From the NCBI RefSeq assembly GCF_003334305.1, contig NZ_QOWS01000001.1: a stretch of DNA of 64,000 nt, one strand, 5' to 3'. Position 1 is the stretch's first letter. Each line of letters opens with the position of its first letter. The notes beneath the pieces were generated by a model. That model saw only the letters and a list, made by a program, of their open reading frames with translations. It made no database searches and had not been told where the DNA came from. This document shows, piece after piece, positions 1 to 12,437 of the stretch. A program made the translations under genes and the position numbers. Origin of the DNA: Escherichia coli (GTDB lineage Bacteria > Pseudomonadota > Gammaproteobacteria > Enterobacterales > Enterobacteriaceae).

Positions 1-3000
1 TATTAATCGCTGGGTAACCAGACGGGTAAAGGGATGATTAACAAACAGAGAATGAAAATCTGCCAGCGACCAGCGTCGGGTGGTACGTAGGGCCGTTTCA
101 AGACGCGGGAGCAGGTTTTTGCTCACCTGAGTGGCATCTTTTTTTAGCCCTTTTAGTCGGGCCAATGCCTCGGGCGCTTTCAGTTGATCGTCATCGGCGC
201 GCAACCGGGGAACGCTTTTCTGGCGAACGTTTTGCTGATCAAAGATAACCGGGTTGAGGTTTTCATCGAAGCGAACGGTAAACTGCCGGGGACCAAAATC
301 AAAACTCAACGCCTGCGGATCATCAAGGCCCAGGGTTGGGACTAATCTGTCCGCTAGCTCTTCCTGGCTTAGCCCGCGATTTTCTGCGACCACCTGAAGA
401 AATTCCGCCGCGTTATCACGTAAGGGGCGGGATTTCGCCCGTTGCGATATATGATGCAGCTGTATCAGCGCCATATCATTATTCATCAGGGTAAGGATGT
501 TCAGGCCACTGACAGCACGGGCAGATTTGCCTTCTTGTGGCCAGCCGAGGATCTGTGTCGTTAGATCCCGTGCCGTGCTTTCGTCACCAAAGAGACTTAA
601 CGCCAGAAATGCCCAGTTGTCTTTTACGGGGGCACCAGCTTGTTGCCACGCAGTGAAGAGATCCCAGGCAAAAGCTGCCAGCGTTTGTGGCTGGCAGAAC
701 GTTTTCAGTTGTTCCAGCCCGCTATAAAAACGTCCCCCCTGGGTAAAGCGCAGCATTTCGCCGATAATTTCCAGAGCGTCATCGGTAACAGGTTGATTAT
801 TAGTGATAAGGCGCGGCCTGGACCACATTTGCGGATGCCAGAAATCAGGGGCTTTTGGAATGCGTGCCGGGTAAATCTCTATTGGACTCTGTTTAAGTAA
901 TTGTTCCAGGGCAGGCCATAGATCTGTACGCTGCCAACGATTGGCTACAGTTTGTAGCAATTCGCCATGCCCATGTTCGTAAAGTAAACGCAGGGCAAGT
1001 AATGCAGCTTCGCTTTTATCGCTAGATTTGGTGAAGATAAGAGGGATAAGTGCAGTAGCCGTATGTTCCGGCCATTGTAAAATCCACTGGCGAGCCAGAT
1101 TACGCTGGCCCGCAAAACGGTGCCAGACGCGGGCAATGGGCAGGGCCAGTTCTGTTGCGCCGAAATTTAAAATTAACGGAAATGTTTCTTTTGGACGATG
1201 TGAAAAAGCCAACATCAGACCTGGTAGCGCATCCAACCCGAGGATACTGAGAAAATAGTCCTCACCCGCGAACAGATGTTTTTTCTCATTGATACGCAGC
1301 CAGAAGGTCAAAGCCATCTCACGCGGCAACTGTGCCAATAAATACAGGTTCCAGACACTCTTTTCCGGACGATAACGTGAGTAGTTGTCATTTTCCCATA
1401 TGTTAATTAACGCTTCTATGTGACCGCTGCGGAGCGCCTGTTCTGCTAATTGTGCTTCCGGGGAGTTCCAGCCATTCAGGATCTCTTCAACCCGCCCCTG
1501 GTAGTAATGCCACTGAACAATGAGTGAATTGCGTGCAGCATCCAGTTTTCCGGGGAGTATATAATTCAAAAACAGCCATACATCATCCCCAAAACCCAGT
1601 TCCTGTAATACAACTCGCCCACTTTTTTGTTCCATGCGTTCCGCAAGAGATTCCGTGCTGAAATAACGGGCAGGCTCAGTGGCGGCAAGCCTCTCTCGTT
1701 CGCCAGGTTGCCAGTAAACTTGCGGCGTTAATTCGAGCGGTGCCAAATCAAGACGTGGAGCTGTCATTTTTTTCTTACTACGCCACGGTGGTGAAACGAG
1801 GATTTCAGGCAGATTGCTGTTATCGGTACTATCAATAACCGGTTTGGGCGGTGCCGATAAATAACTATTCAGCACTGCCCTGGCTTGAGTACTTAACCAC
1901 TGCATCATCTCTTCTGCCAGTTGTGGCTGCGATGCCATCAGCGTTTGTAACAGCGTACGCCAGTATTCATCGCGTGCTTTTTGCTGTGCAGGCAGCTTTT
2001 TGTCTTCGATGATTGGATAACCTGGGCGGGCTGGTGGTTCTGTTAACGCCAGCAGTTCTGCCAGTGCGGCGAGCGTCGCATGGGGGAAGTTTTTATGGTA
2101 TTTAGCTACACGTTGCAGGCTGGGTTTGTTTTTATCAGCCACCAGTAGCAAGGTGCGGATGACTTGCGGATGGTTAATTTGTACCAGCAGACTGCCGCAA
2201 TCTTCTTTATGGGCATACATCGCGAGGCGCGGAATGGCTGCCAGTCCTTGTTCGCGCAAAAGGGCGGCGCAGGCCGCGTAGCCGAAGTGGTTTTCATGCG
2301 ACATGTAGCTGGCTTCTCGATCGCTAAATATATCCTGGCTCCAGTAGTGCTCGAGTTTTCTCACCGCTGTGGGGTCATTAGCAACAACTTTTAACCACTC
2401 CTTAGAATGAAAATGAGTTCGCGGGCATTCAAGGCCTACCAACTCATTGGCTATTTCTGGTTTTTCCGGGAGGATCAGCGCAATAAAAGGGCGGCGAACT
2501 TTGGTTATTCCTGGTAGTGCGGCAATGAGTTTGTCGGCGCAACGCTGCCAGCAGCTTTCCTCTGCCAGAGAGAGATGCTTACGCAGTCGGAGATCGAATT
2601 CGTTATAGGTTTCTGAGCGATAACCATAGCCATAATCCTCGTCCTGATACTGCAATGTCACTACCAGAGGATCACTCTCATAACACCGCGCAATAAACTG
2701 GCGTGCAATCACCACCTCAGTCGCATATTCCAGCCCCTCTTGTTGGACGATTTCGTCGAGCAACTGTTGGCTGTCATTTTGCGCGATACAGGCTAGCGCC
2801 GCCATTGTCCGGGCCGGGATTGAGGGTTTGTGTTCGCCGATCAAGTTGATGGCCTGCGTGATGGCGGACTGCCACTCCAGTGAAAAATTTTCATAACGCC
2901 AGACAATGTTTTTTTTCTTCTCAGCTTTTTGTAGCAATTCATCACCCAGTGTCTGAATGATGCTTTCAGTGATAACAGGCACCGGTTCGCCCGGCCATTT

Positions 3001-3084
3001 GCGATGACTGAGTGGTGTTTTGCCTTTTTTATATTTCAGTTCCAGTTGGGCGTTATCCGCCAGCCACGGTAATTCCTTGTCCAT
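1..3084 (-). CDS. yehI: Large DUF4132-type protein, 3'-truncated by window edge (start codon at 3082-3084, reading frame open to position 1)
   Basis: Reverse-strand translation from ATG at 3084 reads MDKELPWLADNAQLELKYKKGK... with no stop seen before the window edge; it is absent from the ORF track only because it has no stop inside the window. Paralogous to the 1264-aa ORF upstream. Symbol inferred from remembered metG-molR-yehI order. Confidence 0.6.
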   Translation of the reverse strand, partial: MDKELPWLADNAQLELKYKKGKTPLSHRKWPGEPVPVITESIIQTLGDELLQKAEKKKNIVWRYENFSLEWQSAITQAINLIGEHKPSIPARTMAALACIAQNDSQQLLDEIVQQEGLEYATEVVIARQFIARCYESDPLVVTLQYQDEDYGYGYRSETYNEFDLRLRKHLSLAEESCWQRCADKLIAALPGITKVRRPFIALILPEKPEIANELVGLECPRTHFHSKEWLKVVANDPTAVRKLEHYWSQDIFSDREASYMSHENHFGYAACAALLREQGLAAIPRLAMYAHKEDCGSLLVQINHPQVIRTLLLVADKNKPSLQRVAKYHKNFPHATLAALAELLALTEPPARPGYPIIEDKKLPAQQKARDEYWRTLLQTLMASQPQLAEEMMQWLSTQARAVLNSYLSAPPKPVIDSTDNSNLPEILVSPPWRSKKKMTAPRLDLAPLELTPQVYWQPGERERLAATEPARYFSTESLAERMEQKSGRVVLQELGFGDDVWLFLNYILPGKLDAARNSLIVQWHYYQGRVEEILNGWNSPEAQLAEQALRSGHIEALINIWENDNYSRYRPEKSVWNLYLLAQLPREMALTFWLRINEKKHLFAGEDYFLSILGLDALPGLMLAFSHRPKETFPLILNFGATELALPIARVWHRFAGQRNLARQWILQWPEHTATALIPLIFTKSSDKSEAALLALRLLYEHGHGELLQTVANRWQRTDLWPALEQLLKQSPIEIYPARIPKAPDFWHPQMWSRPRLITNNQPVTDDALEIIGEMLRFTQGGRFYSGLEQLKTFCQPQTLAAFAWDLFTAWQQAGAPVKDNWAFLALSLFGDESTARDLTTQILGWPQEGKSARAVSGLNILTLMNNDMALIQLHHISQRAKSRPLRDNAAEFLQVVAENRGLSQEELADRLVPTLGLDDPQALSFDFGPRQFTVRFDENLNPVIFDQQNVRQKSVPRLRADDDQLKAPEALARLKGLKKDATQVSKNLLPRLETALRTTRRWSLADFHSLFVNHPFTRLVTQRLI

Positions 3085-3093
3085 GCTCTTTCC

Positions 3094-6000
3094 TTATTCA
3101 AACAGGGCTTCAATATCGTTAATTAGCTCGCTGGCGGTGATGGCATCGAGTACGGAGAACTGCGCTTCCTGTGTTGAATTACTCCCCCAGCCATAGCTTT
3201 CCGCTTTGCCTTCCCATAACCACAGCTTGCTTAAGAGCTGCTCAGCGCTAAGTTCGGCTGGTGACATACCCACCGCAAAACCTTCGTCGATTTCCATGAT
3301 TAACGACCAGCGACCCAAAGGTTTGATCATCCATCCGATCCAGCCTCCATCCTGTGGTTCGCCCTTTATCCAGCCTTTATTCGCCAGCCCCATGACCCGA
3401 CCACTCGGGCATTTTCTGCCTGCCCAGCGGGTCAGTTCACTGGCATTGTGCTCGGCTTCTGTCAGGGCGTAGCTGTTACGGTCGAGCTGGCGGAACGGTG
3501 GTAGCAGTTCGTAGTCGGCAAAAAGCTGACCAAAGGCGGCAGCATCCGTTGGTGATATTTCCAGAACGTGAGGAGTGCCGATAGAGATATCGCCTTCCGG
3601 CAGGGTGAAAAGATCATCGTCAGCGGTGCTGTAGCTGTTATCTTCTGCTACGCGAAAGCAAGCCAGTAGCTGGTTTTCGGCGCTATAAACGCCCCAAATC
3701 AGACGGCGGGTTAAGTGGCGAACCAGCGGATGCTCAACCAGGAAGAGCTGGAAGTTTTCCGGCGACCAGCGGCGGCGCAGGCACATGGCGGATTCCAGCC
3801 TTGCTACCTGCTGGGCGGCGACGGTACGCGCATCTTTTTTCAGCAATTTGTAGCGGTTAACCGCATCGTTCGACCGCGATTCATCATCGCTTTTGTTCGG
3901 TTTGGGCAGGTCTTTCAGGCGGCTGCCGGAAACATCACGCACAAACGGTTTTAAGGTTTCATCAAAGCTGACGGTGAACTGCCGTGGGCCAAAATCCAGC
4001 AGCAGCGAACCGTTATCATCCAGACCGAGATCCGGTGCTAACCGATCTTCAAGCTCCGCCACCGTGAGTTCGCGGCTCTCGGCAATGTCGGCAATTTTTT
4101 CTTTTGCCCGCTCCTGTAATGCTTTGAATTTCAGTTTCTGGGCGATGCCGTTAAGCTGCATAAGGGCGATATCACTACCGATAGCAGCGAGAATATCCAA
4201 CCCAACGGTGGCGCGTTTATGCTGGGATTCACCAGGCCAGGCGCGTATTAATGGCGTCAGTTTGCGGGCGGTGTCATCGTTACCGAGAACGCCTAACGCA
4301 GTGAACGCCCAACTCTCTTTCGACGGCGCGCCAGCGGTCTGCCAGGCGGTAAACAGATCCCAGGCAAATCCCGCCAGTGAGTCGGCGGAACAGACGTCTT
4401 TCACCTGCAATAATCCCGGATACAGAGCCTCTTCCTGAGGGAAGCGGAGCATTTCACCGAGGTGGAGGAGGGCGCTATCTGGCAGTGATTGGGCATTTGC
4501 TTTTAATACCGGGCGCGTCCAGAGCGATGGCTGATAAAAGGCCGGAAGAGTGGGGATTTTTGTCGGGTGATTATCTAAGGGATCGAGCGCAAGCAGAGCG
4601 TTCACCGCATCGGTTACTTCCGGCTGGTTATAACGTCGGGCGATTTCTTGCAGTAATGGCTGATGACCGTTTTCGGTAAGCATACGCAAGGCAGCGCGGG
4701 CGTTATCCTGTGCTTCACCGGCTTTGCCGAGCGCCGCAGGCAGCAGGCCGGTAAGGGCATGTTCCGGGTATTTCAACAGCCAGCTACGGGCGTTTTCGCG
4801 TAGCGTTTTCAGTTTGTTGAAGGCACGGGCGACGGCAGGAGCCAGCTCACTCGCTGCGAAGTAATTCGTGATGGGCAAGGCTTCTTGTGGATAGCGTGCA
4901 AGTGAGTTTACTAACCCAGGTAACCCTTTGAGTCCAAAATGTAACATGGCGTATTCGGTATCGGTATGTGGAGATAGGGTAAGGGCATTCCATGCTTTTA
5001 CTGCTTTCTCCAGCGGCAATGTTGTCAAAATCCCCAACTGCCAATAATGCCCGGTAGGTGAATGAAACACCTTAAATTCACTTAGTAAGGTTGAATAATC
5101 TTCATTTAGCCATGCCTCAACTACCGCTTCGGGAGCTTTAATATATGTACCAGCGATCCGTCGTTGAAAACCCATCCTTGCCAACAGGTTGGTAGTACTT
5201 TCTTCATGGCTAACCGTGATGTGTTTTGAATACCAGATATATTTCGCCAAAAGTTGATTACTGATTTCTTCTGTCAGATAACAGATTGGCTCAATGCCTA
5301 ATGGCGCTAAATCCAGCACCGGAATCGGCGATTTTTTCTTTTTCGAAAGCCAGGGAGGGGAGACTACTACGGCTGGCAGTAGATCGGCGCTGGCATGGTT
5401 TGAGGGCTGTGTCAGTTGTTGCTGGCATGATTTCAGTACGGCAACTGCGGGTGTCGAGAGCCAGGGAATGACCTGTTCTGCCAGTGCTGGTTGTGAGATA
5501 AGCATTGTCATTAGCATAATGCGCCAACTGTTCTCTTCTTTTTGCCCAAGAAGTTCCGTCAGTGCCGCCATTGCTGCATGTGGGAACGCAGCGCAGGCTT
5601 TCGTCATCCGATCGTGACAGCGTTTAGTATGCCCGGCTACACGTATAAGCAGTGTTAATGCGAACGGATGATTGATATGACGCAACACATCGGCGCAGTA
5701 GTCACTTGCGGCATAGGGAGCAAATCGGGGCAGGGCTGCAACACCTTGCTCCTGTAATACGGTGGCTGACCATATCGCACCACAATAGTAATCATCAAAA
5801 ATGGCATATGGCTCGTGATATTTTTCTAATGAGGCAAGAATGTGCTCATCAGTCGCCACTATTTTTAACCACTCAAGCGAGGGTAATTTTTTTTGCCCCA
5901 GTAGACGCTGGGCAATTTCATGTGCAATTTCTGGTTTTTCGGGTAATAACAAAGCAATTAATGGTTGCCGCCATTCTGGAATATGTGGAATTGCGGCAAT

Positions 6001-6888
6001 AAGTTTTTGTGCACATTTTTGCCAGAGAGACTCTTCCGCCAGTGATAAATGTTTACGTAGGCGTAATTCAAATCTGGAATATTGCTCCAAGTAGTCAGGT
6101 GCAATGCCAGACGGCAGAATAATAATGACATTATTCGCATAATCCCATTTAATATCAATCTGTTGAAGGTGTATTATTACATCAGTAGCATATTCCAGAC
6201 CGCCTTCCTGGACGATCTGATCCATAACATCCTCACGCACTTTATATCTTGTGCATTTCATTTCAAGTGCCGTGAGTACAGCCATTACTGGTGATGGTAG
6301 CTGTGTTGTTTTCAGGCCGTCGATCTGACTGATCGCCTGGGCGACGGTGTTTTGCCATTCTAAAGAACAGGCGCTGAAGTCAAATGTGGCTGTTTTATTA
6401 TCCCGTTGCGACACACTACAGGCTAAGCGACGTAATTGGGTCAATTTGTCTGCTTGCTGAACAGGAACTCCGGGAAAGCGGCGATGACTTAACGTGGTGT
6501 GTACAACTTCGGGCGGAAAAACGACAGCAATATCTTTCGCCAGCCACGGTAAAACAGCATCTGTATTTTTGTCAGGCGCACGGGTTTCTGCTACGAAAGA
6601 GGGTTGTTCCTGAATAATGGTGGATAAGTCCGCTACCTTGAGAGAGCCCGTTACCGTTTGGGAAGGTTGCAAAGAATTATCCTTCGCTTGCTCCACATAC
6701 CCCTTCTTCACCTTCTCCGCAATCAGCTTAAGCTCCGCTTTTGCCGCTGCCGCAGCATCTGAAAAACTTTTTATCTGGCTTTGCCCTTTGGTGCCAACTT
6801 TTCCCCAACTGATATGCAACTCGTTTCCCTGTTGCTCAACTGCCCAGAATTTATGTGATTTTTCGTCCTGATAGATAAAGTGTCTCAT
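3094..6888 (-). CDS. molR: WGR-domain + DUF4132 protein (MolR-like), 1264 aa, apparently intact
   Basis: Single 1264-aa ORF; N-terminus MRHFIYQDEKSHKFWAVEQQGNELHISWGKVG resembles a WGR domain; sits immediately downstream of metG on the same strand. Confidence 0.65.
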   Translation of the reverse strand: MRHFIYQDEKSHKFWAVEQQGNELHISWGKVGTKGQSQIKSFSDAAAAAKAELKLIAEKVKKGYVEQAKDNSLQPSQTVTGSLKVADLSTIIQEQPSFVAETRAPDKNTDAVLPWLAKDIAVVFPPEVVHTTLSHRRFPGVPVQQADKLTQLRRLACSVSQRDNKTATFDFSACSLEWQNTVAQAISQIDGLKTTQLPSPVMAVLTALEMKCTRYKVREDVMDQIVQEGGLEYATDVIIHLQQIDIKWDYANNVIIILPSGIAPDYLEQYSRFELRLRKHLSLAEESLWQKCAQKLIAAIPHIPEWRQPLIALLLPEKPEIAHEIAQRLLGQKKLPSLEWLKIVATDEHILASLEKYHEPYAIFDDYYCGAIWSATVLQEQGVAALPRFAPYAASDYCADVLRHINHPFALTLLIRVAGHTKRCHDRMTKACAAFPHAAMAALTELLGQKEENSWRIMLMTMLISQPALAEQVIPWLSTPAVAVLKSCQQQLTQPSNHASADLLPAVVVSPPWLSKKKKSPIPVLDLAPLGIEPICYLTEEISNQLLAKYIWYSKHITVSHEESTTNLLARMGFQRRIAGTYIKAPEAVVEAWLNEDYSTLLSEFKVFHSPTGHYWQLGILTTLPLEKAVKAWNALTLSPHTDTEYAMLHFGLKGLPGLVNSLARYPQEALPITNYFAASELAPAVARAFNKLKTLRENARSWLLKYPEHALTGLLPAALGKAGEAQDNARAALRMLTENGHQPLLQEIARRYNQPEVTDAVNALLALDPLDNHPTKIPTLPAFYQPSLWTRPVLKANAQSLPDSALLHLGEMLRFPQEEALYPGLLQVKDVCSADSLAGFAWDLFTAWQTAGAPSKESWAFTALGVLGNDDTARKLTPLIRAWPGESQHKRATVGLDILAAIGSDIALMQLNGIAQKLKFKALQERAKEKIADIAESRELTVAELEDRLAPDLGLDDNGSLLLDFGPRQFTVSFDETLKPFVRDVSGSRLKDLPKPNKSDDESRSNDAVNRYKLLKKDARTVAAQQVARLESAMCLRRRWSPENFQLFLVEHPLVRHLTRRLIWGVYSAENQLLACFRVAEDNSYSTADDDLFTLPEGDISIGTPHVLEISPTDAAAFGQLFADYELLPPFRQLDRNSYALTEAEHNASELTRWAGRKCPSGRVMGLANKGWIKGEPQDGGWIGWMIKPLGRWSLIMEIDEGFAVGMSPAELSAEQLLSKLWLWEGKAESYGWGSNSTQEAQFSVLDAITASELINDIEALFE

Positions 6889-7028
6889 TCTGCATCCCTG
6901 TAATTTTATCCAGTTGAATGCAGATGCTACCAGTATTTATGCGGGTTAGAGAGAGACAAAATCGCAAGAAAACAACTTTAGGAATTTATAAAGAAAAGGC
7001 GCTGTCGATGCAGCGCCTTAAAGGGGGA

Positions 7029-9062
7029 TTATTTCACCTGATGGCCTGGTTTAGCACCAGCATCCGGGCTTAACAGGAAGATATCTTTCCCGCCAGGACC
7101 AGCAGCCATTACCATGCCTTCGGAGATACCAAAGCGCATTTTACGCGGTGCCAGGTTGGCCACCATAATGGTGTGACGCCCGATCAGTGCCTGCGGATCC
7201 GGGTAGGCAGAACGAATACCGGAGAAGACATTGCGTTTTTCACCGCCGAGATCCAGTGTCAGGCGCAGCAGTTTGTCAGAACCTTCAACAAACTCTGCGT
7301 TTTCGATCAGCGCCACGCGCAGGTCAACTTTTGCGAAGTCGTCAAAGGTGATGGTTTCCTGAATCGGATCATCTGCCAGTGGGCCAGTAACTGGCGCGGC
7401 AGCTGCTTTCACTTCTTCTTTAGACGCTTCCACCAGTGCTTCAACCTGCTTCATATCGATGCGGTTATACAGCGCTTTGAACGGATTCACTTTGTGGCCC
7501 AGCAGCGGTTGCTGGATACCATCCCAGGTCAGTTCTGTATTGAGGAATGCTTCTGCGCGCTCGGTCAGTTTCGGCAGTACCGGCTTCAGGTAAGTCATCA
7601 GCACGCGGAACAGGTTTATGCCCATTGAGCAAATTGCCTGCAGGTCGGCATCGCGGCCTTCCTGTTTTGCCACCACCCACGGAGCCTGCTCGTCGACATA
7701 GCGGTTAGCCAGATCAGCCAGCGCCATGATTTCGCGCACTGCTTTACCAAATTCGCGGCTTTCCCACGCTTCACCAATCACTTCAGCGGCATCAGTGAAG
7801 GTTTTGTACAACTGCGGGTCAGCCAATTCGCTTGCCAGCACGCCGTCAAAACGCTTGTTGATAAAGCCCGCATTACGAGAGGCCAGGTTAACCACTTTGT
7901 TCACGATATCGGCATTCACACGCTGAACGAAATCCTCCAGGTTGAGATCGATATCATCAATGCGCGAAGAGAGTTTCGCAGTGTAGTAGTAACGCAGGCT
8001 GTCAGCGTCAAAATGATTCAGCCAGGTGCTGGCTTTAATAAAGGTGCCGCGAGACTTGGACATCTTTGCGCCGTTCACCGTCACATAGCCATGAACAAAC
8101 AGGTTGGTCGGCTTGCGGAAGTTGCTGCCTTCCAGCATGGCAGGCCAGAACAGGCTGTGGAAGTAAACAATATCTTTACCGATGAAGTGGTACAGCTCGG
8201 CGGTGGAGTCTTTCTTCCAGTATTCATCGAAGCTTACGCTGTCGCCGCGCTTGTCGCACAGATTCTTGAAAGAACCCATGTAGCCAATCGGTGCGTCCAG
8301 CCAGACGTAGAAATATTTGCCCGGCGCGTTCGGAATTTCAAAACCAAAGTATGGCGCGTCGCGGGAGATATCCCACTGTTGCAGGCCGGATTCAAACCAC
8401 TCCTGCATTTTATTTGCCACCTGCTCCTGCAACGCACCGCTGCGGGTCCATGCCTGCAACATTTCGCTGAAAGAGGGCAGATCAAAGAAGAAGTGTTCAG
8501 AATCACGCATTACCGGCGTAGCGCCAGAAACCACCGATTTCGGCTCGATCAATTCAGTCGGGCTGTAGGTCGCGCCGCAGACTTCGCAGTTATCGCCGTA
8601 TTGATCCGGGGATTTACATTTCGGGCAGGTGCCTTTCACAAAACGGTCCGGCAGGAACATGCCTTTTTCCGGATCGTACAGCTGAGAGATGGTGCGGTTT
8701 TTAATAAAACCGTTCTCTTTCAGGCGAGAGTAGATAAGTTCTGACAACTGGCGGTTCTCTTCGCTGTGCGTCGAGTGATAGTTGTCATAGCTGATGTTAA
8801 AGCCTGCGAAATCAGTCTGATGCTCCTGACTCATTTCGCCAATCATCTGCTCCGGGGTGATACCAAGCTGCTGAGCTTTCAGCATGATCGGTGTACCGTG
8901 GGCATCGTCGGCGCAGATGAAGTTGACCTCGTGGCCGCGCATTCGCTGGTAACGGACCCAGACATCAGCCTGGATGTGCTCCAGCATATGGCCGAGGTGG
9001 ATTGAGCCGTTAGCGTACGGCAGTGCGCACGTCACCAGAATTTTCTTCGCGACTTGAGTCAT
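7029..9062 (-). CDS. metG: Methionyl-tRNA synthetase
   Basis: Translation [29 protein letters not shown] (HIGH-type motif), KMSKS present ([10 protein letters not shown]); 677 aa from the internal Met of the 680-aa ORF. Confidence 0.95.
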
Positions 9063-9193
9063 AGTAGGCATTACTTCTTAATAGTGAAAAGGGGTTAGAT
9101 AGTACCAAATGGGAAAATGTTAAGTAAGTACTTCTCTATATTCTTCAGGTAAACTATCAGCTGATGGTTTATCTATACAAAAAAGGAGTCGGG

Positions 9194-10303
9194 ATGAACG
9201 AACAATCCCAGGCCAAATCACCAGAAGCCTTGCGCGCAATGGTCGCCGGGACACTGGCCAATTTTCAGCACCCAACCCTGAAGCATAACCTCACCACGCT
9301 GAAAGCGTTGCACCATGTCGCCTGGATGGACGACACGTTGCATGTGGAACTGGTTATGCCATTCGTCTGGCATAGCGCGTTTGAAGAGTTAAAAGAGCAA
9401 TGTAGCGCCGAACTGCTGCGTATCACCGGGGCGAAAGCTATCGACTGGAAACTGTCGCACAATATCGCCACCTTAAAACGCGTGAAGAATCAGCCGGGTA
9501 TTAATGGTGTGAAGAACATCATTGCGGTCAGCTCCGGTAAAGGCGGCGTGGGTAAATCCTCCACGGCGGTAAACCTGGCGCTGGCACTGGCGGCGGAAGG
9601 GGCGAAAGTCGGCATTCTGGACGCCGATATCTACGGCCCATCAATTCCCACCATGCTGGGCGCAGAAAATCAGCGTCCAACGTCGCCGGACGGTACCCAC
9701 ATGGCACCGATTATGTCTCATGGCCTGGCAACCAATTCAATTGGTTATCTGGTCACTGACGACAATGCGATGGTGTGGCGTGGACCGATGGCGAGCAAGG
9801 CGTTAATGCAGATGTTGCAGGAAACCTTGTGGCCGGATCTCGACTATCTGGTGCTTGATATGCCGCCAGGCACCGGTGACATTCAATTGACGCTGGCGCA
9901 AAACATTCCAGTAACTGGTGCAGTCGTGGTCACCACCCCGCAGGACATCGCGTTGATCGATGCGAAAAAAGGCATTGTGATGTTCGAGAAAGTCGAGGTT
10001 CCGGTGCTTGGTATTGTCGAGAACATGAGTGTGCATATTTGCAGTAACTGTGGTCACCATGAACCGATTTTCGGTACCGGTGGTGCTGAGAAACTGGCTG
10101 AAAAATACCACACACAGCTGCTGGGGCAGATGCCGTTACACATCTCCTTACGTGAGGATCTCGATAAAGGCACGCCAACGGTTATCAGCCGTCCGGAGAG
10201 CGAATTTACCGCTATCTACCGCCAGTTGGCTGACCGCGTTGCAGCTCAGCTCTACTGGCAGGGTGAAGTCATTCCAGGCGAGATTTCCTTCCGCGCGGTC
10301 TAA
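9194..10303 (+). CDS. mrp: Fe-S cluster carrier ATPase Mrp/ApbC
   Basis: P-loop GKGGVGKSS; start MNEQSQAKSPE preceded by AAAGGAG; divergent from metG. Confidence 0.9.
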   Translation: MNEQSQAKSPEALRAMVAGTLANFQHPTLKHNLTTLKALHHVAWMDDTLHVELVMPFVWHSAFEELKEQCSAELLRITGAKAIDWKLSHNIATLKRVKNQPGINGVKNIIAVSSGKGGVGKSSTAVNLALALAAEGAKVGILDADIYGPSIPTMLGAENQRPTSPDGTHMAPIMSHGLATNSIGYLVTDDNAMVWRGPMASKALMQMLQETLWPDLDYLVLDMPPGTGDIQLTLAQNIPVTGAVVVTTPQDIALIDAKKGIVMFEKVEVPVLGIVENMSVHICSNCGHHEPIFGTGGAEKLAEKYHTQLLGQMPLHISLREDLDKGTPTVISRPESEFTAIYRQLADRVAAQLYWQGEVIPGEISFRAV

Positions 10304-10331
10304 CGCCTATTAACCATTCTGGTTATTCTTC

Positions 10332-10374
10332 ATACACCGCAGAGATGTTACATTGATGCGGTGTATTAGTTTTT
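10332..10374 (+). terminator. Putative rho-independent terminator after mrp
   Basis: Inverted repeat ATACACCGCA...TGCGGTGTAT followed by TAGTTTTT; loop is rather long. Confidence 0.4.
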
Positions 10375-10565
10375 GCCGCATTAATGAACACTTATTTAAT
10401 ACTGCGAATATTCTGCGGACCTTCGTCCGAAACTCTACAAAGTCGATTGATCATACAGGCAATGCTTCATTATCATCCTTCGTGGCTGTGTAGTGGATGT
10501 ACAGCTATAGTTTGTTATGCACTCATTCTATCCAGGCATAACCTTTACTACAGGGATAACGTTCA

Positions 10566-10847
10566 ATGAATAAGTATTGGCTGTCAGGAATTATTTTTCT
10601 TGCCTATGGATTGGCTTCTCCCGCATTCTCTTCAGAGACTGCCACATTAACGATTAATGGCAGGATCAGTCCCCCAACATGCAGTATGGCTATGGTTAAT
10701 AGTCAACCACAACAGCATTGTGGTCAGTTAACGTATAATGTTGACACCCGTCATCTGTTTTCTTCGCCCGTCAAAGGTGTAACGACAGAAGTGGTTGTTG
10801 CAGGTAGCGATAGCAAACGTCGAATCGTGTTAAATCGCTACGATTAA
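10566..10847 (+). CDS. yehE: Small secreted protein preceding the fimbrial operon
   Basis: 93-aa ORF with N-terminal signal-like sequence MNKYWLSGIIFLAYGLASPAFS; position upstream of yehD. Confidence 0.75.
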   Translation: MNKYWLSGIIFLAYGLASPAFSSETATLTINGRISPPTCSMAMVNSQPQQHCGQLTYNVDTRHLFSSPVKGVTTEVVVAGSDSKRRIVLNRYD

Positions 10848-10879
10848 TTTGGCAACCTGATTTTAATTGCATTTAGAAA

Positions 10880-10916
10880 GCCGAAATCATTTATATAAAT
10901 GATTTCGGCTTTTTTA
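10880..10916 (+). terminator. Rho-independent terminator
   Basis: GCCGAAATCATT-loop-AATGATTTCGGC stem followed by a T6 run. Confidence 0.7.
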
Positions 10917-11139
10917 TTGATATCAACAATACCATTTACATAAATCTACATTAATTGATAGATGCGATAAATAGTTAATACTCTTAAATATTTGCTGTAT
11001 TTATATTGCAATGGTTAATTTGTTTTAAATCAATAAAACAATGTGTTTACATTGCGGCAACTTTTTTGATGTGAGAAATTTGTTTCCAAGAGATACAGAC
11101 TCTTAACAACCAAAAATAAATTTTATTAAGGAACATATT

Positions 11140-11682
11140 ATGAAACGTTCAATTATTGCTGCCGCTGTCTTTTCTTCTTTTTTTATGAGCGCTGGAGTAT
11201 TTGCTGCAGACGTTGATACCGGAACATTAACTATTAAGGGGAATATTGCAGAATCTCCGTGTAAATTCGAAGCGGGTGGTGATTCAGTAAGTATTAATAT
11301 GCCGACTGTACCAACCACTGTCTTTGAAAGTAAAGCTAAATATTCTACCTATGATGATGCAGTCGGTGTAACCAGCAGCATGTTAAAAATTAGCTGCCCG
11401 AAAGAAGTTGCTGGTGTAAAACTCTCGTTGATTACCAACGATAAAATAACCGGTAACGATAAGGCGATAGCCAGTAGCAACGATACCGTGGGTTACTATC
11501 TCTATTTAGGTGATAACAGCGATGTCCTGGATGTTTCTGCACCTTTTAACATTGAGAGTTATAAAACAGCGGAAGGTCAATATGCTATTCCGTTTAAAGC
11601 AAAATACCTGAAACTGACAGATAACTCAGTGCAATCAGGTGATGTGTTATCTTCTCTGGTTATGCGTGTGGCGCAGGATTAA
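11140..11682 (+). CDS. yehD: Fimbrial major subunit (chaperone-usher pathway)
   Basis: 180 aa, signal peptide MKRSIIAAAVFSSFFMSAGVFA, fimbrial-subunit-like composition; first gene of a subunit-chaperone-usher-adhesin cluster. Confidence 0.8.
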   Translation: MKRSIIAAAVFSSFFMSAGVFAADVDTGTLTIKGNIAESPCKFEAGGDSVSINMPTVPTTVFESKAKYSTYDDAVGVTSSMLKISCPKEVAGVKLSLITNDKITGNDKAIASSNDTVGYYLYLGDNSDVLDVSAPFNIESYKTAEGQYAIPFKAKYLKLTDNSVQSGDVLSSLVMRVAQD

Positions 11683-11762
11683 TAAATAAAATTGCAAGTT
11701 TCTCCAGGTAATAAACATGGCCGCTATCCCCATGGCGGCTTTTTAATTTAAGAGGCATTAAG

Positions 11763-12437
11763 ATGAAAGGATTATTATCTTTACTCATTTTTTCTATGGT
11801 CCTTCCTGCACATGCCGGAATTGTTATCTACGGGACGCGCATTATTTACCCGGCAGAAAATAAAGAAGTTATGGTGCAGTTGATGAACCAGGGAAACCGT
11901 TCTTCGCTGCTGCAGGCGTGGATTGATGATGGCGATACGTCGTTACCACCAGAAAAAATTCAGGTTCCTTTCATGTTAACGCCACCAGTGGCAAAAATAG
12001 GGGCAAATTCCGGGCAGCAAGTAAAAATCAAAATTATGCCGAATAAACTGCCCACTAATAAAGAAAGCATTTTTTATCTGAATGTTCTGGATATTCCACC
12101 AAATAGTCCAGAACAAGAAGGTAAGAATGCACTGAAGTTTGCGATGCAAAACAGAATCAAATTGTTTTACCGCCCGGCGGGTATTGCTCCGGTAAATAAA
12201 GCGACCTTTAAAAAGTTACTGGTAAGTCGCAGTGGCAATGGATTGGTGATAAAAAATGACTCAGCTAATTGGGTGACGATTTCGGATGTCAAAGCTAATA
12301 ATGTCAAAGTCAATTATGAAACTATAATGATTGCCCCCTTAGAAAGTCAGAGTGTTAATGTCAAAAGTAATAATGCAAATAACTGGTATCTGACCATTAT
12401 CGATGACCACGGCAACTATATTAGTGACAAAATTTAA
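11763..12437 (+). CDS. yehC: Periplasmic fimbrial chaperone
   Basis: 224-aa ORF with signal peptide; chaperone-like sequence (YGTRIIYP, MPNKLPTNKESIFYLNV); start may lie upstream. Confidence 0.8.
   Translation: MKGLLSLLIFSMVLPAHAGIVIYGTRIIYPAENKEVMVQLMNQGNRSSLLQAWIDDGDTSLPPEKIQVPFMLTPPVAKIGANSGQQVKIKIMPNKLPTNKESIFYLNVLDIPPNSPEQEGKNALKFAMQNRIKLFYRPAGIAPVNKATFKKLLVSRSGNGLVIKNDSANWVTISDVKANNVKVNYETIMIAPLESQSVNVKSNNANNWYLTIIDDHGNYISDKI

Follow-up and report, generated by a model that had tools for sequence, protein, structure and literature searches.

MoxR-class AAA+ ATPases, which act together with VWA partner proteins, are divided into seven subfamilies, one of which bears the name YehL (PMC3893208). 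The WGR domain of PARPs recognizes DNA breaks (PMC13061835, PMC6294510). In Deinococcus radiodurans, the DUF4132 protein DRA0166 and the WGR protein DR2173 rise after mitomycin C in an IrrE-dependent manner (PMC8533742). The window considered here is a 64,000-nucleotide stretch of Escherichia coli DNA, and the two genes at its beginning, a molR-type gene and yehI, encode proteins that we read, with a probability of roughly 40%, as non-catalytic adaptor or sensor subunits, which would act with the products of the linked genes yehL, yehM, yehP and yehQ (YehLMPQ) in an ATP-driven remodelling system induced by DNA damage.

Read along the minus strand, an intact 1264-aa ORF (3094-6888) comes after metG (7029-9071), and next to it lies yehI (1-3084), which is truncated by the window edge. 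The parts of this layout are as follows.

6996..7019, minus strand: terminator-like hairpin of the intrinsic type past metG, with a 9-bp stem, 6 G-C pairs and a T-rich tail (scan)
3094..6888, minus strand: intact molR-type gene, 1264 aa plus stop (ORF and translation, RefSeq CDS WP_001215597.1, Pfam)
3085..3093, minus strand: 9-nt intergenic gap, from the molR stop to the yehI start, GGAAAGAGC, purine-rich and Shine-Dalgarno-like (direct sequence reading)
1..3084, minus strand: yehI, first 1028 of 1210 codons (translation, RefSeq yehI WP_000356741.1 in strain A7)

The molR-type gene runs through 1264 uninterrupted codons from an ATG to a TAA. It coincides with WP_001215597.1 of E. coli strain A7, where window 3000-7030 is matched at 100% identity, and its product aligns over the full length with many homologs of 1262-1264 aa. 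The ORF contains no cryptic frameshift, and the intactness assumed in the original prediction stands. The match to A7, the synteny with metG, apbC and yehI, and the position in the order metG, array, yehK, yehLMPQ identify the two genes as molR and yehI orthologs. The hairpin stands between metG and the molR promoter region, while the yehI frame, with 1028 open codons, starts at an ATG 9 nt past the molR-type stop; the gap GGAAAGAGC implies that the two genes are probably co-transcribed. Scans for Rfam families and for repeats, covering 1-10500 and 1-7100, gave nothing relevant. Both genes, their paralogy and domains, and the pseudogene status in K-12 are already in the RefSeq annotation, to which the original prediction adds nothing.

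The product of the molR-type gene (MolR) and YehI are paralogs. They are aligned by BLASTP collinearly with 37% identity over 1044 columns (573 bits, E = 0.0), the start of YehI corresponding to MolR residue ~110, and both peptide blocks that had been quoted as common to the two ORFs are found verbatim. The order of domains in MolR is WGR, variable helical region, HEAT-like repeats and DUF4132 alpha/beta module, encoded as follows.

6682..6873, minus strand: WGR coding segment, aa 6-69 (Pfam PF05406, E 4.9e-18; PDB 2ra8_A, E 1.4e-16; PARP3 WGR 2eoc by family profile)
5032..6681, minus strand: variable region, aa ~70-620, G+C 0.44-0.47, hypervariable among E. coli alleles and among paralogs
3097..5031, minus strand: conserved C-terminal module, aa ~620-1264, HEAT-like repeats plus DUF4132 alpha/beta, the core of the whole family
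3370..3927, minus strand: DUF4132 segment (Pfam PF13569), aa 988-1173, E 2.2e-49, model positions 1-179 of 179

The tandem paralogy, the WGR-like N-terminus and the DUF4132 type were thus all rightly predicted. The WGR motif region of MolR reads SWGKVGTKGQ, and by analogy this domain is a candidate nucleic-acid binder. In YehI, Pfam finds DUF4132 as the sole domain (residues 954-1138, E 8.1e-46) and no match to WGR, so that nucleic-acid binding would not be essential for each paralog. The core common to the family is aa ~620-1200, and at a cut-off of E <= 1e-30 the family comprises 2582 representative clusters. Inspection by eye of the longest homologs for informative domain fusions picked out one histidine-kinase-like N-terminal extension and one internal duplication, both of which may be gene-calling artefacts. 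Confident models of MolR aa 600-1264 contain helical repeats and a TBP-like alpha/beta domain, the repeats being stacked and antiparallel and structurally matching known HEAT/ARM-like alpha-solenoids. A Foldseek search against the PDB gave nothing at E <= 0.001, and the models show no similarity to solved enzyme structures. Whether the query was the protein or a profile of the family, searches of PDB sequences returned only WGR and generic alphaRep/HEAT matches and none for DUF4132, and NCBIfam and PADLOC gave no informative family.

Of 5426 complete E. coli genomes, 1644 (~30%) carry three paralogs in the order c1-c2-yehI, and so do related Escherichia and Klebsiella. The window gene has 92% amino acid identity to c2 of ESY002 and just 46-47% to c1. 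When the upstream region and the 5' part of the CDS are aligned, the window sequence tracks c1 upstream and up to CDS nt ~175-200, and c2 from nt ~240.

6649..6714, minus strand: approximate c1/c2 crossover at the end of the WGR segment, on which alignment, sliding identity and pS by segment agree

The window gene is, judged from this sequence mosaic, a hybrid with the promoter and WGR-coding start of c1 and the body of c2, and the two-gene layout is therefore most simply read as a deletion from a three-gene array. Neither the annotation nor the literature searched was found to mention this origin. The metG-proximal copy is intact and in tandem as claimed, but its relation to the metG-proximal gene of three-gene strains is not one of simple orthology. 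DNA identity of the window gene to 118UI c2 rises from 50-86% in the variable 5' part to 90-98% over the 3' third. The ratio dN/dS lies at 0.16-0.27 in all pairs, deep allele classes included, which shows purifying selection; between the allele classes, synonymous sites are saturated, so that these classes must be old. Gene-wide positive selection was considered as the source of the N-terminal diversity and rejected, as dN/dS is below 0.5 in each computable 100-codon window.

MolR-like genes are adjacent, on the same strand, to homologs of yehL-M-P-Q in 29 of 31 genus-level labels, in a sample of 76 loci from GTDB species genomes searched for the cassette genes only. Among the linked groups are Enterobacterales, Burkholderiales, Xanthomonadales, Mycolicibacterium, Trichlorobacter and one deltaproteobacterial MAG. 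The array lies upstream of yehL in 51 loci, with a median of 122 nt between the match to the C-terminal module and the match to yehL. Copies per array range from 1 to ~8: three in Escherichia and Klebsiella, up to four in one locus in Duganella, and ~8 in one array of Massilia aquatica with yehLMPQ at its end. Some copies in Massilia and Archangium are more than 10 kb from any yehLMPQ, and the contigs of two distant family representatives contain none of the cassette genes. The predicted tandem pair is present, but its genes are not free-standing; they form the variable front end of a conserved cassette with yehLMPQ. YehL is a MoxR-class AAA+ ATPase (AAA_5, E 2e-33) in which GEPGTAKS and VRFEE are read as variants of Walker A and Walker B, YehM is a DUF5682 protein, YehP is a VWA protein with DQSGS (MIDAS), and YehQ is a double SWIM zinc finger protein with two CxC...CxH motifs. 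Going by these motifs, the YehLMPQ engine looks functional. Linkage alone fits an adaptor and a client equally and cannot tell them apart. The literature search found no interaction data for MolR or YehI with YehLMPQ and no functional study of DUF4132, DUF5682, yehI/L/M/P/Q, or MoxR with SWIM plus WGR, in agreement with the prediction that these proteins are functionally uncharacterised.

A LexA box consists of CTG-N10-CAG with an AT-rich centre. The promoter region of the array holds such a sequence.

6898..6913, minus strand: LexA-box-like palindrome, CTGGATAAAATTACAG, its end 9 nt upstream of the molR-type ATG (sequence and pattern search)

In E. whittamii, Escherichia sp. E1V33 and K. oxytoca, near-identical boxes lie upstream of the array's first gene, at -24/-25, and a review table headed "Known SOS box" includes molR (PMC6590174). 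A LexA-type box was found in 3 of 92 upstream windows, none of them outside Escherichia and Klebsiella, and SOS control may therefore be lineage-specific.

The adaptor reading is supported by the linkage, by the combination of a single engine with many front ends, by the conserved C-terminus and variable N-terminus, by the functional look of the engine and by purifying selection; its damage-induced part is supported by the LexA-type box, the SOS listing of molR and the induction in Deinococcus. It is weakened by the copies far from any yehLMPQ, by the frequent lesions of the cassette in E. coli, by the restriction of the LexA-type boxes found to Escherichia and Klebsiella, and by the lack of WGR in YehI. 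In the proposed mechanism, the N-terminal WGR domain would bind nucleic acid, the fast-diverging helical region would pick a partner or target, and the C-terminal HEAT-like and DUF4132 module would dock on the YehLMPQ engine, for which tandem duplication would supply alternative front ends. In Escherichia and Klebsiella, the array would be read from a LexA-controlled promoter, and the system would be deployed after DNA damage. A bolder and rather doubtful extension is that the WGR-HEAT-DUF4132 proteins, diversified in tandem, serve as exchangeable front ends that sense nucleic acid for an unrecognised damage-induced AAA+/VWA/SWIM system, widespread in Proteobacteria and Actinobacteria, whose targets would be protein complexes bound to DNA or else DNA that invades the cell. 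If this were true, the YehL-type cassette would represent a new branch of DNA-damage tolerance or immunity in bacteria.

A defence against phages or mobile elements, in which the WGR/HEAT proteins would be sensors for nucleic acid or proteins of foreign origin and YehLMPQ the executor driven by ATP, would fit the tandem expansion of paralogs with a hypervariable recognition-like region on a conserved module, as well as the deep allelic classes, the identity bands down to 80-90% and the polymorphic copy number (c1 in 1644 of 5426 genomes). Pseudogenes and IS or transposon insertions are also frequent at the locus (PMC9334617), and a type I toxin-antitoxin repeat sits between yehI and yehL in many strains (PMC2887945). 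However, the site beside metG is fixed in the chromosome, being matched in 5424 of 5426 genomes, and the locus occurs in none of 50,697 phage records and in almost no plasmids, which argues against a mobile origin. Moreover, PADLOC-DB v2 has zero families for MolR, YehI, YehK, YehL, YehP and YehQ, the parts examined, YehM not among them, yielded no nuclease, protease, NADase or pore-forming effector, and the low dN/dS speaks against gene-wide positive selection. A defence system is an improbable reading.

Slightly less probable still is a classical MoxR/VWA maturation, in which YehLMPQ would insert a metal or cofactor into an enzyme complex, or assemble it, with MolR and YehI as clients or scaffolds. 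Characterised MoxR proteins mature or activate specific complexes, often with VWA partners (PMC3893208), YehL matches GvpN/MadB-type AAA models, and YehP weakly matches a cobaltochelatase model. The name molR comes, as cited in ref. 69 of PMC8533742, from a 1990 genetic study of molybdate utilisation, and this old link could in principle be rescued by maturation. Arrays of up to ~8 diverged paralogs are, however, ill-suited to clients, and no metalloenzyme gene was noted beside the cassette in the 76 loci, which were searched for cassette genes only. Regulation by DNA damage is also unlike cofactor insertion, and in Deinococcus the molybdenum-cofactor genes are unchanged alongside the DUF4132 operon (PMC8533742).

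The array might also be decaying baggage without function in present-day E. coli. In the K-12 derivative ER2683, which is 99.1% identical to window 3000-7030, the gene is annotated "frameshifted; internal stop": codon 275 (window ~6065) reads TGA instead of TTA, and CDS nt 2845 (window ~4044) is followed by an additional G, so the K-12 pseudogene has one nonsense codon and one +1 frameshift. One or more molR-type genes are disrupted in 5 of 12 strains of a hand-picked, non-random set, and the broken genes of the cassette comprise molR and yehQ in K-12, yehM by a frameshift in strain A7, yehL in ESY002, and c1 and c2 in O157:H7. Parts of the E. coli cassette are often broken, and the system is therefore clearly dispensable under many conditions; yehI, in turn, is named in titles of genome-engineering papers. 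Nevertheless, the genes are full-length in most sampled strains, the 61-mer spanning the K-12 frameshift occurs exactly in just 352 of 5426 genomes, dN/dS is low even between deep allele classes, and a family of 2582 clusters is maintained. An array without current function in E. coli is quite improbable.

The historical reading of MolR as a transcriptional regulator of molybdate metabolism, although it persists in database names ("molybdate metabolism regulator", "MolR family transcriptional regulator") and is repeated in the literature (PMC3950696), can be set aside as very improbable, since Pfam and NCBIfam show no helix-turn-helix or other regulator DNA-binding domain, the model of aa 600-1264 has HEAT-like repeats and a TBP-like alpha/beta domain and no regulator fold, K-12, on which laboratory strains are based, has only a pseudogene, and the conserved partners of molR are AAA+/VWA/SWIM genes and not mod or moa.

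Within the E. coli SOS regulon, molR is one of a small number of genes to which no function has been assigned, and the YehL subfamily is likewise uncharacterised. The broken molR and yehQ of K-12 may explain why the system has stayed unseen in the standard laboratory strain. Natural isolates make the question approachable, as most sampled strains keep an intact gene, the cassette to which it belongs occurs across phyla, and the products of the gene resemble adaptors more than enzymes.

The non-catalytic adaptor or sensor proposed here can be compared with known systems at several levels. Residues 2-70 of MolR have clear sequence homology to the WGR domains of PARP1/2/3 and bacterial WGR proteins (2ra8, 2eoc), although PARPs have a catalytic domain, which is absent in MolR, and the motif in MolR is W-G-K instead of W-G-R. 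The resemblance of the helical repeats to HEAT/ARM adaptors (importins, Integrator IntS4, symplekin, PBS-lyase HEAT repeats) goes no further than the fold class, at 10-15% sequence identity, and assigns no function. The alpha/beta domain resembles YugN-like/TBP-like domains (PDB 2pww; DUF1831, 2iay) with 8% sequence identity, and the function of those proteins is likewise uncharacterised. The products of yehL and yehP show the same pairing of a ring ATPase with a VWA adaptor as the MoxR AAA+/VWA pairs RavA-ViaA, CbbQ-CbbO and NorQ-NorD. Unlike the members of such pairs, MolR and YehI are neither AAA+ nor VWA proteins, and the YehL-type cassette is distinguished from these pairs by its extra DUF5682 protein, its double-SWIM protein and its 1 to ~8 WGR/HEAT/DUF4132 proteins.

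The gene next to metG and the gene that follows it, yehI, are laid out as follows at this end of the window:

7029-9071, minus strand: metG
6996-7019, minus strand: terminator-like hairpin after metG (hairpin scan)
107 nt, minus strand: promoter region between the hairpin and the molR-type ORF
3094-6888, minus strand: molR-type ORF, open for 1264 codons
9 nt, minus strand: purine-rich gap between the molR-type ORF and yehI
3084 to the window edge, minus strand: yehI, open, with 1028 of its 1210 codons in the window

The first product (MolR) aligns collinearly with YehI at 37% identity over 1044 columns (pairwise alignment, E = 0.0), and the YehI start aligns with MolR residue ~110. In Pfam, MolR has WGR (residues 6-69, E 4.9e-18) and DUF4132 (residues 988-1173, E 2.2e-49), and YehI has DUF4132 only. 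The original prediction of tandem WGR/DUF4132 paralogs, with WGR at the N-terminus of the first gene, is thus borne out, and both peptide blocks that it quoted are found. The 1264-aa ORF is intact, as had been claimed; it is open throughout and is an ordinary CDS in the RefSeq annotation of E. coli A7 (NZ_CP028767.1), a 100% match to window 3000-7030. Its status as a K-12 pseudogene agrees with the annotation of the K-12 derivative ER2683 ('frameshifted; internal stop', RefSeq) and with the sequence: 33 positions differ from the window, among them codon 275, which reads TGA for TTA, and an additional G that follows CDS nt 2845. The observation was real and correctly interpreted, yet it repeats existing annotation; added here are a hybrid gene origin, an ancestral three-gene array, a cross-phylum yehLMPQ cassette and an adaptor-like structure.

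In strains 118UI, ESY002 and O157:H7, two metG-proximal paralogs (c1 and c2) precede yehI in the order metG-c1-c2-yehI. The c1 body is present in 1644 of 5426 complete E. coli genomes, and three copies also occur in E. whittamii, two other Escherichia species and two Klebsiella species. The window protein is 92% identical to ESY002 c2 and 46-47% to c1, while its upstream region and first ~175-200 coding nt track c1 almost base for base, the switch to c2 being complete by about nt 240. Within a single strain, c1 and c2 differ at synonymous sites with pS 0.12-0.48 in the WGR codons and ~0.7 in the remaining gene; unequal recombination has a natural substrate in this conserved 5' segment. Given the c1-like 5' end, the c2-like body and the low-divergence WGR segment, the two-gene layout of the window and K-12 is most simply read as a deletion that joined the c2 body to the promoter and WGR start of c1. 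Sequence comparison indicates an array of three genes as the ancestral state of the locus, with the window gene a c1/c2 hybrid.

The c2-type alleles of E. coli are mosaic: roughly the first 2.3 kb shows DNA identity of 50-86%, the final third 90-98%. The variable part of the window gene is low in G+C (0.44-0.47). Within this one gene, G+C steps from 0.44-0.47 in the variable 5' half (window 5001-7000) to 0.53-0.56 in the conserved 3' part (3001-5000), at the point where hypervariable allele sequence gives way to conserved sequence. Between allele classes, synonymous sites have reached saturation, and dN/dS is 0.16-0.27 in every allele pair, by which both decaying sequence and gene-wide positive selection are rejected. 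The pattern indicates that these alleles are old and selectively maintained. Beyond apbC, the yehE/yehD/yehC fimbrial genes (window 10500-12000) show a sharp fall in G+C to 0.36-0.41, as horizontally acquired chaperone-usher fimbrial operons typically do.

The MolR family is very large, with 2582 cluster representatives (50% identity) at E <= 1e-30, most of those listed sharing a core at residues ~620-1200. None of 50,697 phage records contains a member, and only 31 of 72,556 plasmid records do, several of these 31 being as large as a chromosome. The conserved module was scanned against one genome per GTDB species, giving 76 loci, on which the cassette genes were located by tblastn with E. coli YehL, YehM, YehP and YehQ. 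In most of them, yehL-yehM-yehP-yehQ homologs directly follow MolR-like genes on the same strand (in the opposite order in some Burkholderia loci), with adjacency in 29 of 31 genus-level labels and a median of 122 nt between array and yehL matches where yehL lies downstream of the array (51 loci). Short contigs depart from this pattern, as do solitary copies in Massilia and Archangium and loci wholly filled by an array. Copy number ranges from 1 to ~8, the maximum being in Massilia aquatica, where an array pieced together from three overlapping loci, L042, L063 and L075 (NZ_VVIW01000005.1, ~221-258 kb), ends in one yehLMPQ set. Very long arrays also occur in other Massilia (loci L060 and L062), and genomes with long arrays hold solitary WGR/DUF4132 copies elsewhere. 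Among the representative homologs P0235 and P0238, one has the conserved C-terminal module twice in one 1673-aa product and the other has a ~500-aa N-terminal extension, histidine-kinase-like by eye only; these could be real fusions or gene-calling artefacts.

YehL is of the AAA_5/MoxR class (E 2e-33), and its GEPGTAKS and VRFEE can be taken for variants of the Walker A and Walker B motifs. A MIDAS motif (DQSGS) is present in YehP, and two SWIM CxC...CxH motifs are present in YehQ. One of the seven MoxR subfamilies is named after YehL, and VWA partners are typical for MoxR ATPases (PMC3893208). C-terminal parts of MolR were modelled by AlphaFold2 with a 70-sequence alignment (residues 600-1264, pLDDT 94.7, pTM 0.88; residues 950-1264, pLDDT 95.2), the DUF4132 region forming a small beta-meander, a long helix and alpha+beta units. 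Foldseek against PDB gave no match at E <= 0.001; 2pww, a YugN-like protein without known function, has a TBP-like fold (PMC2954206). In the modelled C-terminal half, neither a fold nor a motif resembling an enzyme was found, the rest being covered by Pfam and sequence searches only. In the best-supported model, to which we give a probability of roughly 0.4, MolR and YehI would serve a YehLMPQ AAA+/VWA/SWIM machine as non-catalytic subunits, either adaptors or sensors. As the analogy to WGR in PARPs suggests, WGR would tether MolR to nucleic acid; partner choice would fall to the variable helical region, and docking onto the YehLMPQ engine to the conserved C-terminal module.

A defence system with diversified sensors is an unlikely reading, as PADLOC gives no matches, the genes keep one fixed place on the chromosome and an effector was not seen in the parts examined. 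Slightly less likely still is a classical MoxR maturation system with MolR and YehI as its clients. Among 12 strains, hand-chosen and non-random, the molR-type gene or genes are intact in 7 and disrupted in 5, and the 61-mer with the K-12 extra G is exact in just 352 of 5426 complete genomes. The lesions are:

K-12: molR-type gene, frameshift and internal stop; yehQ, internal stop (L085:2577-4577)
MP1: molR-type gene, stop codon
O157:H7: both molR-type copies
A1.S1.18: molR-type gene, IS26/CTX-M-15 transposon; yehK, frameshifted (L091:2076-2392)
2017.10.01CC: molR-type gene, IS1
A7, source strain of the window: yehM, frameshifted (L006:10365-12643, outside the window)
ESY002: yehL, frameshifted (L004:1-496)

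The pseudogenised cassette gene thus varies by strain, K-12 lacks both functional molR and functional yehQ, and no all-intact cassette is shown among strains examined over the whole cassette. The array is also a recurrent insertion site (genome matches H13 and H50): an IS26-flanked blaCTX-M-15 transposon truncates the c2-type gene of A1.S1.18 (L091:8884-14754), in agreement with a published ST131 sublineage (PMC9334617), and IS1203 is inserted in an O157:H7 strain. Purifying selection contradicts a reading of the genes as non-functional remnants, which is improbable. The historical 'molybdate metabolism regulator' is highly improbable, no regulator domain or fold being found.

Under the adaptor model, SOS control would govern when Escherichia deploys the system. 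A LexA-type box, CTGGATAAAATTACAG, occupies 6898-6913 and stops 9 nt short of the ATG. E. whittamii, Escherichia sp. E1V33 and K. oxytoca have nearly identical boxes at -24/-25 before the first gene of the array; none was found upstream in other taxa (3 of 92 upstream regions with a box overall). LexA-regulated genes with a known SOS box include molR (PMC6590174), a gene whose promoter BglJ-RcsB activates (PMC3950696). Two Deinococcus radiodurans genes, DRA0166 (DUF4132) and DR2173 (WGR), have DdrO-type operator motifs upstream and are up-regulated after mitomycin C in an IrrE-dependent manner (PMC8533742); here WGR/DUF4132 domains are controlled by a second DNA-damage regulon, one from another phylum.
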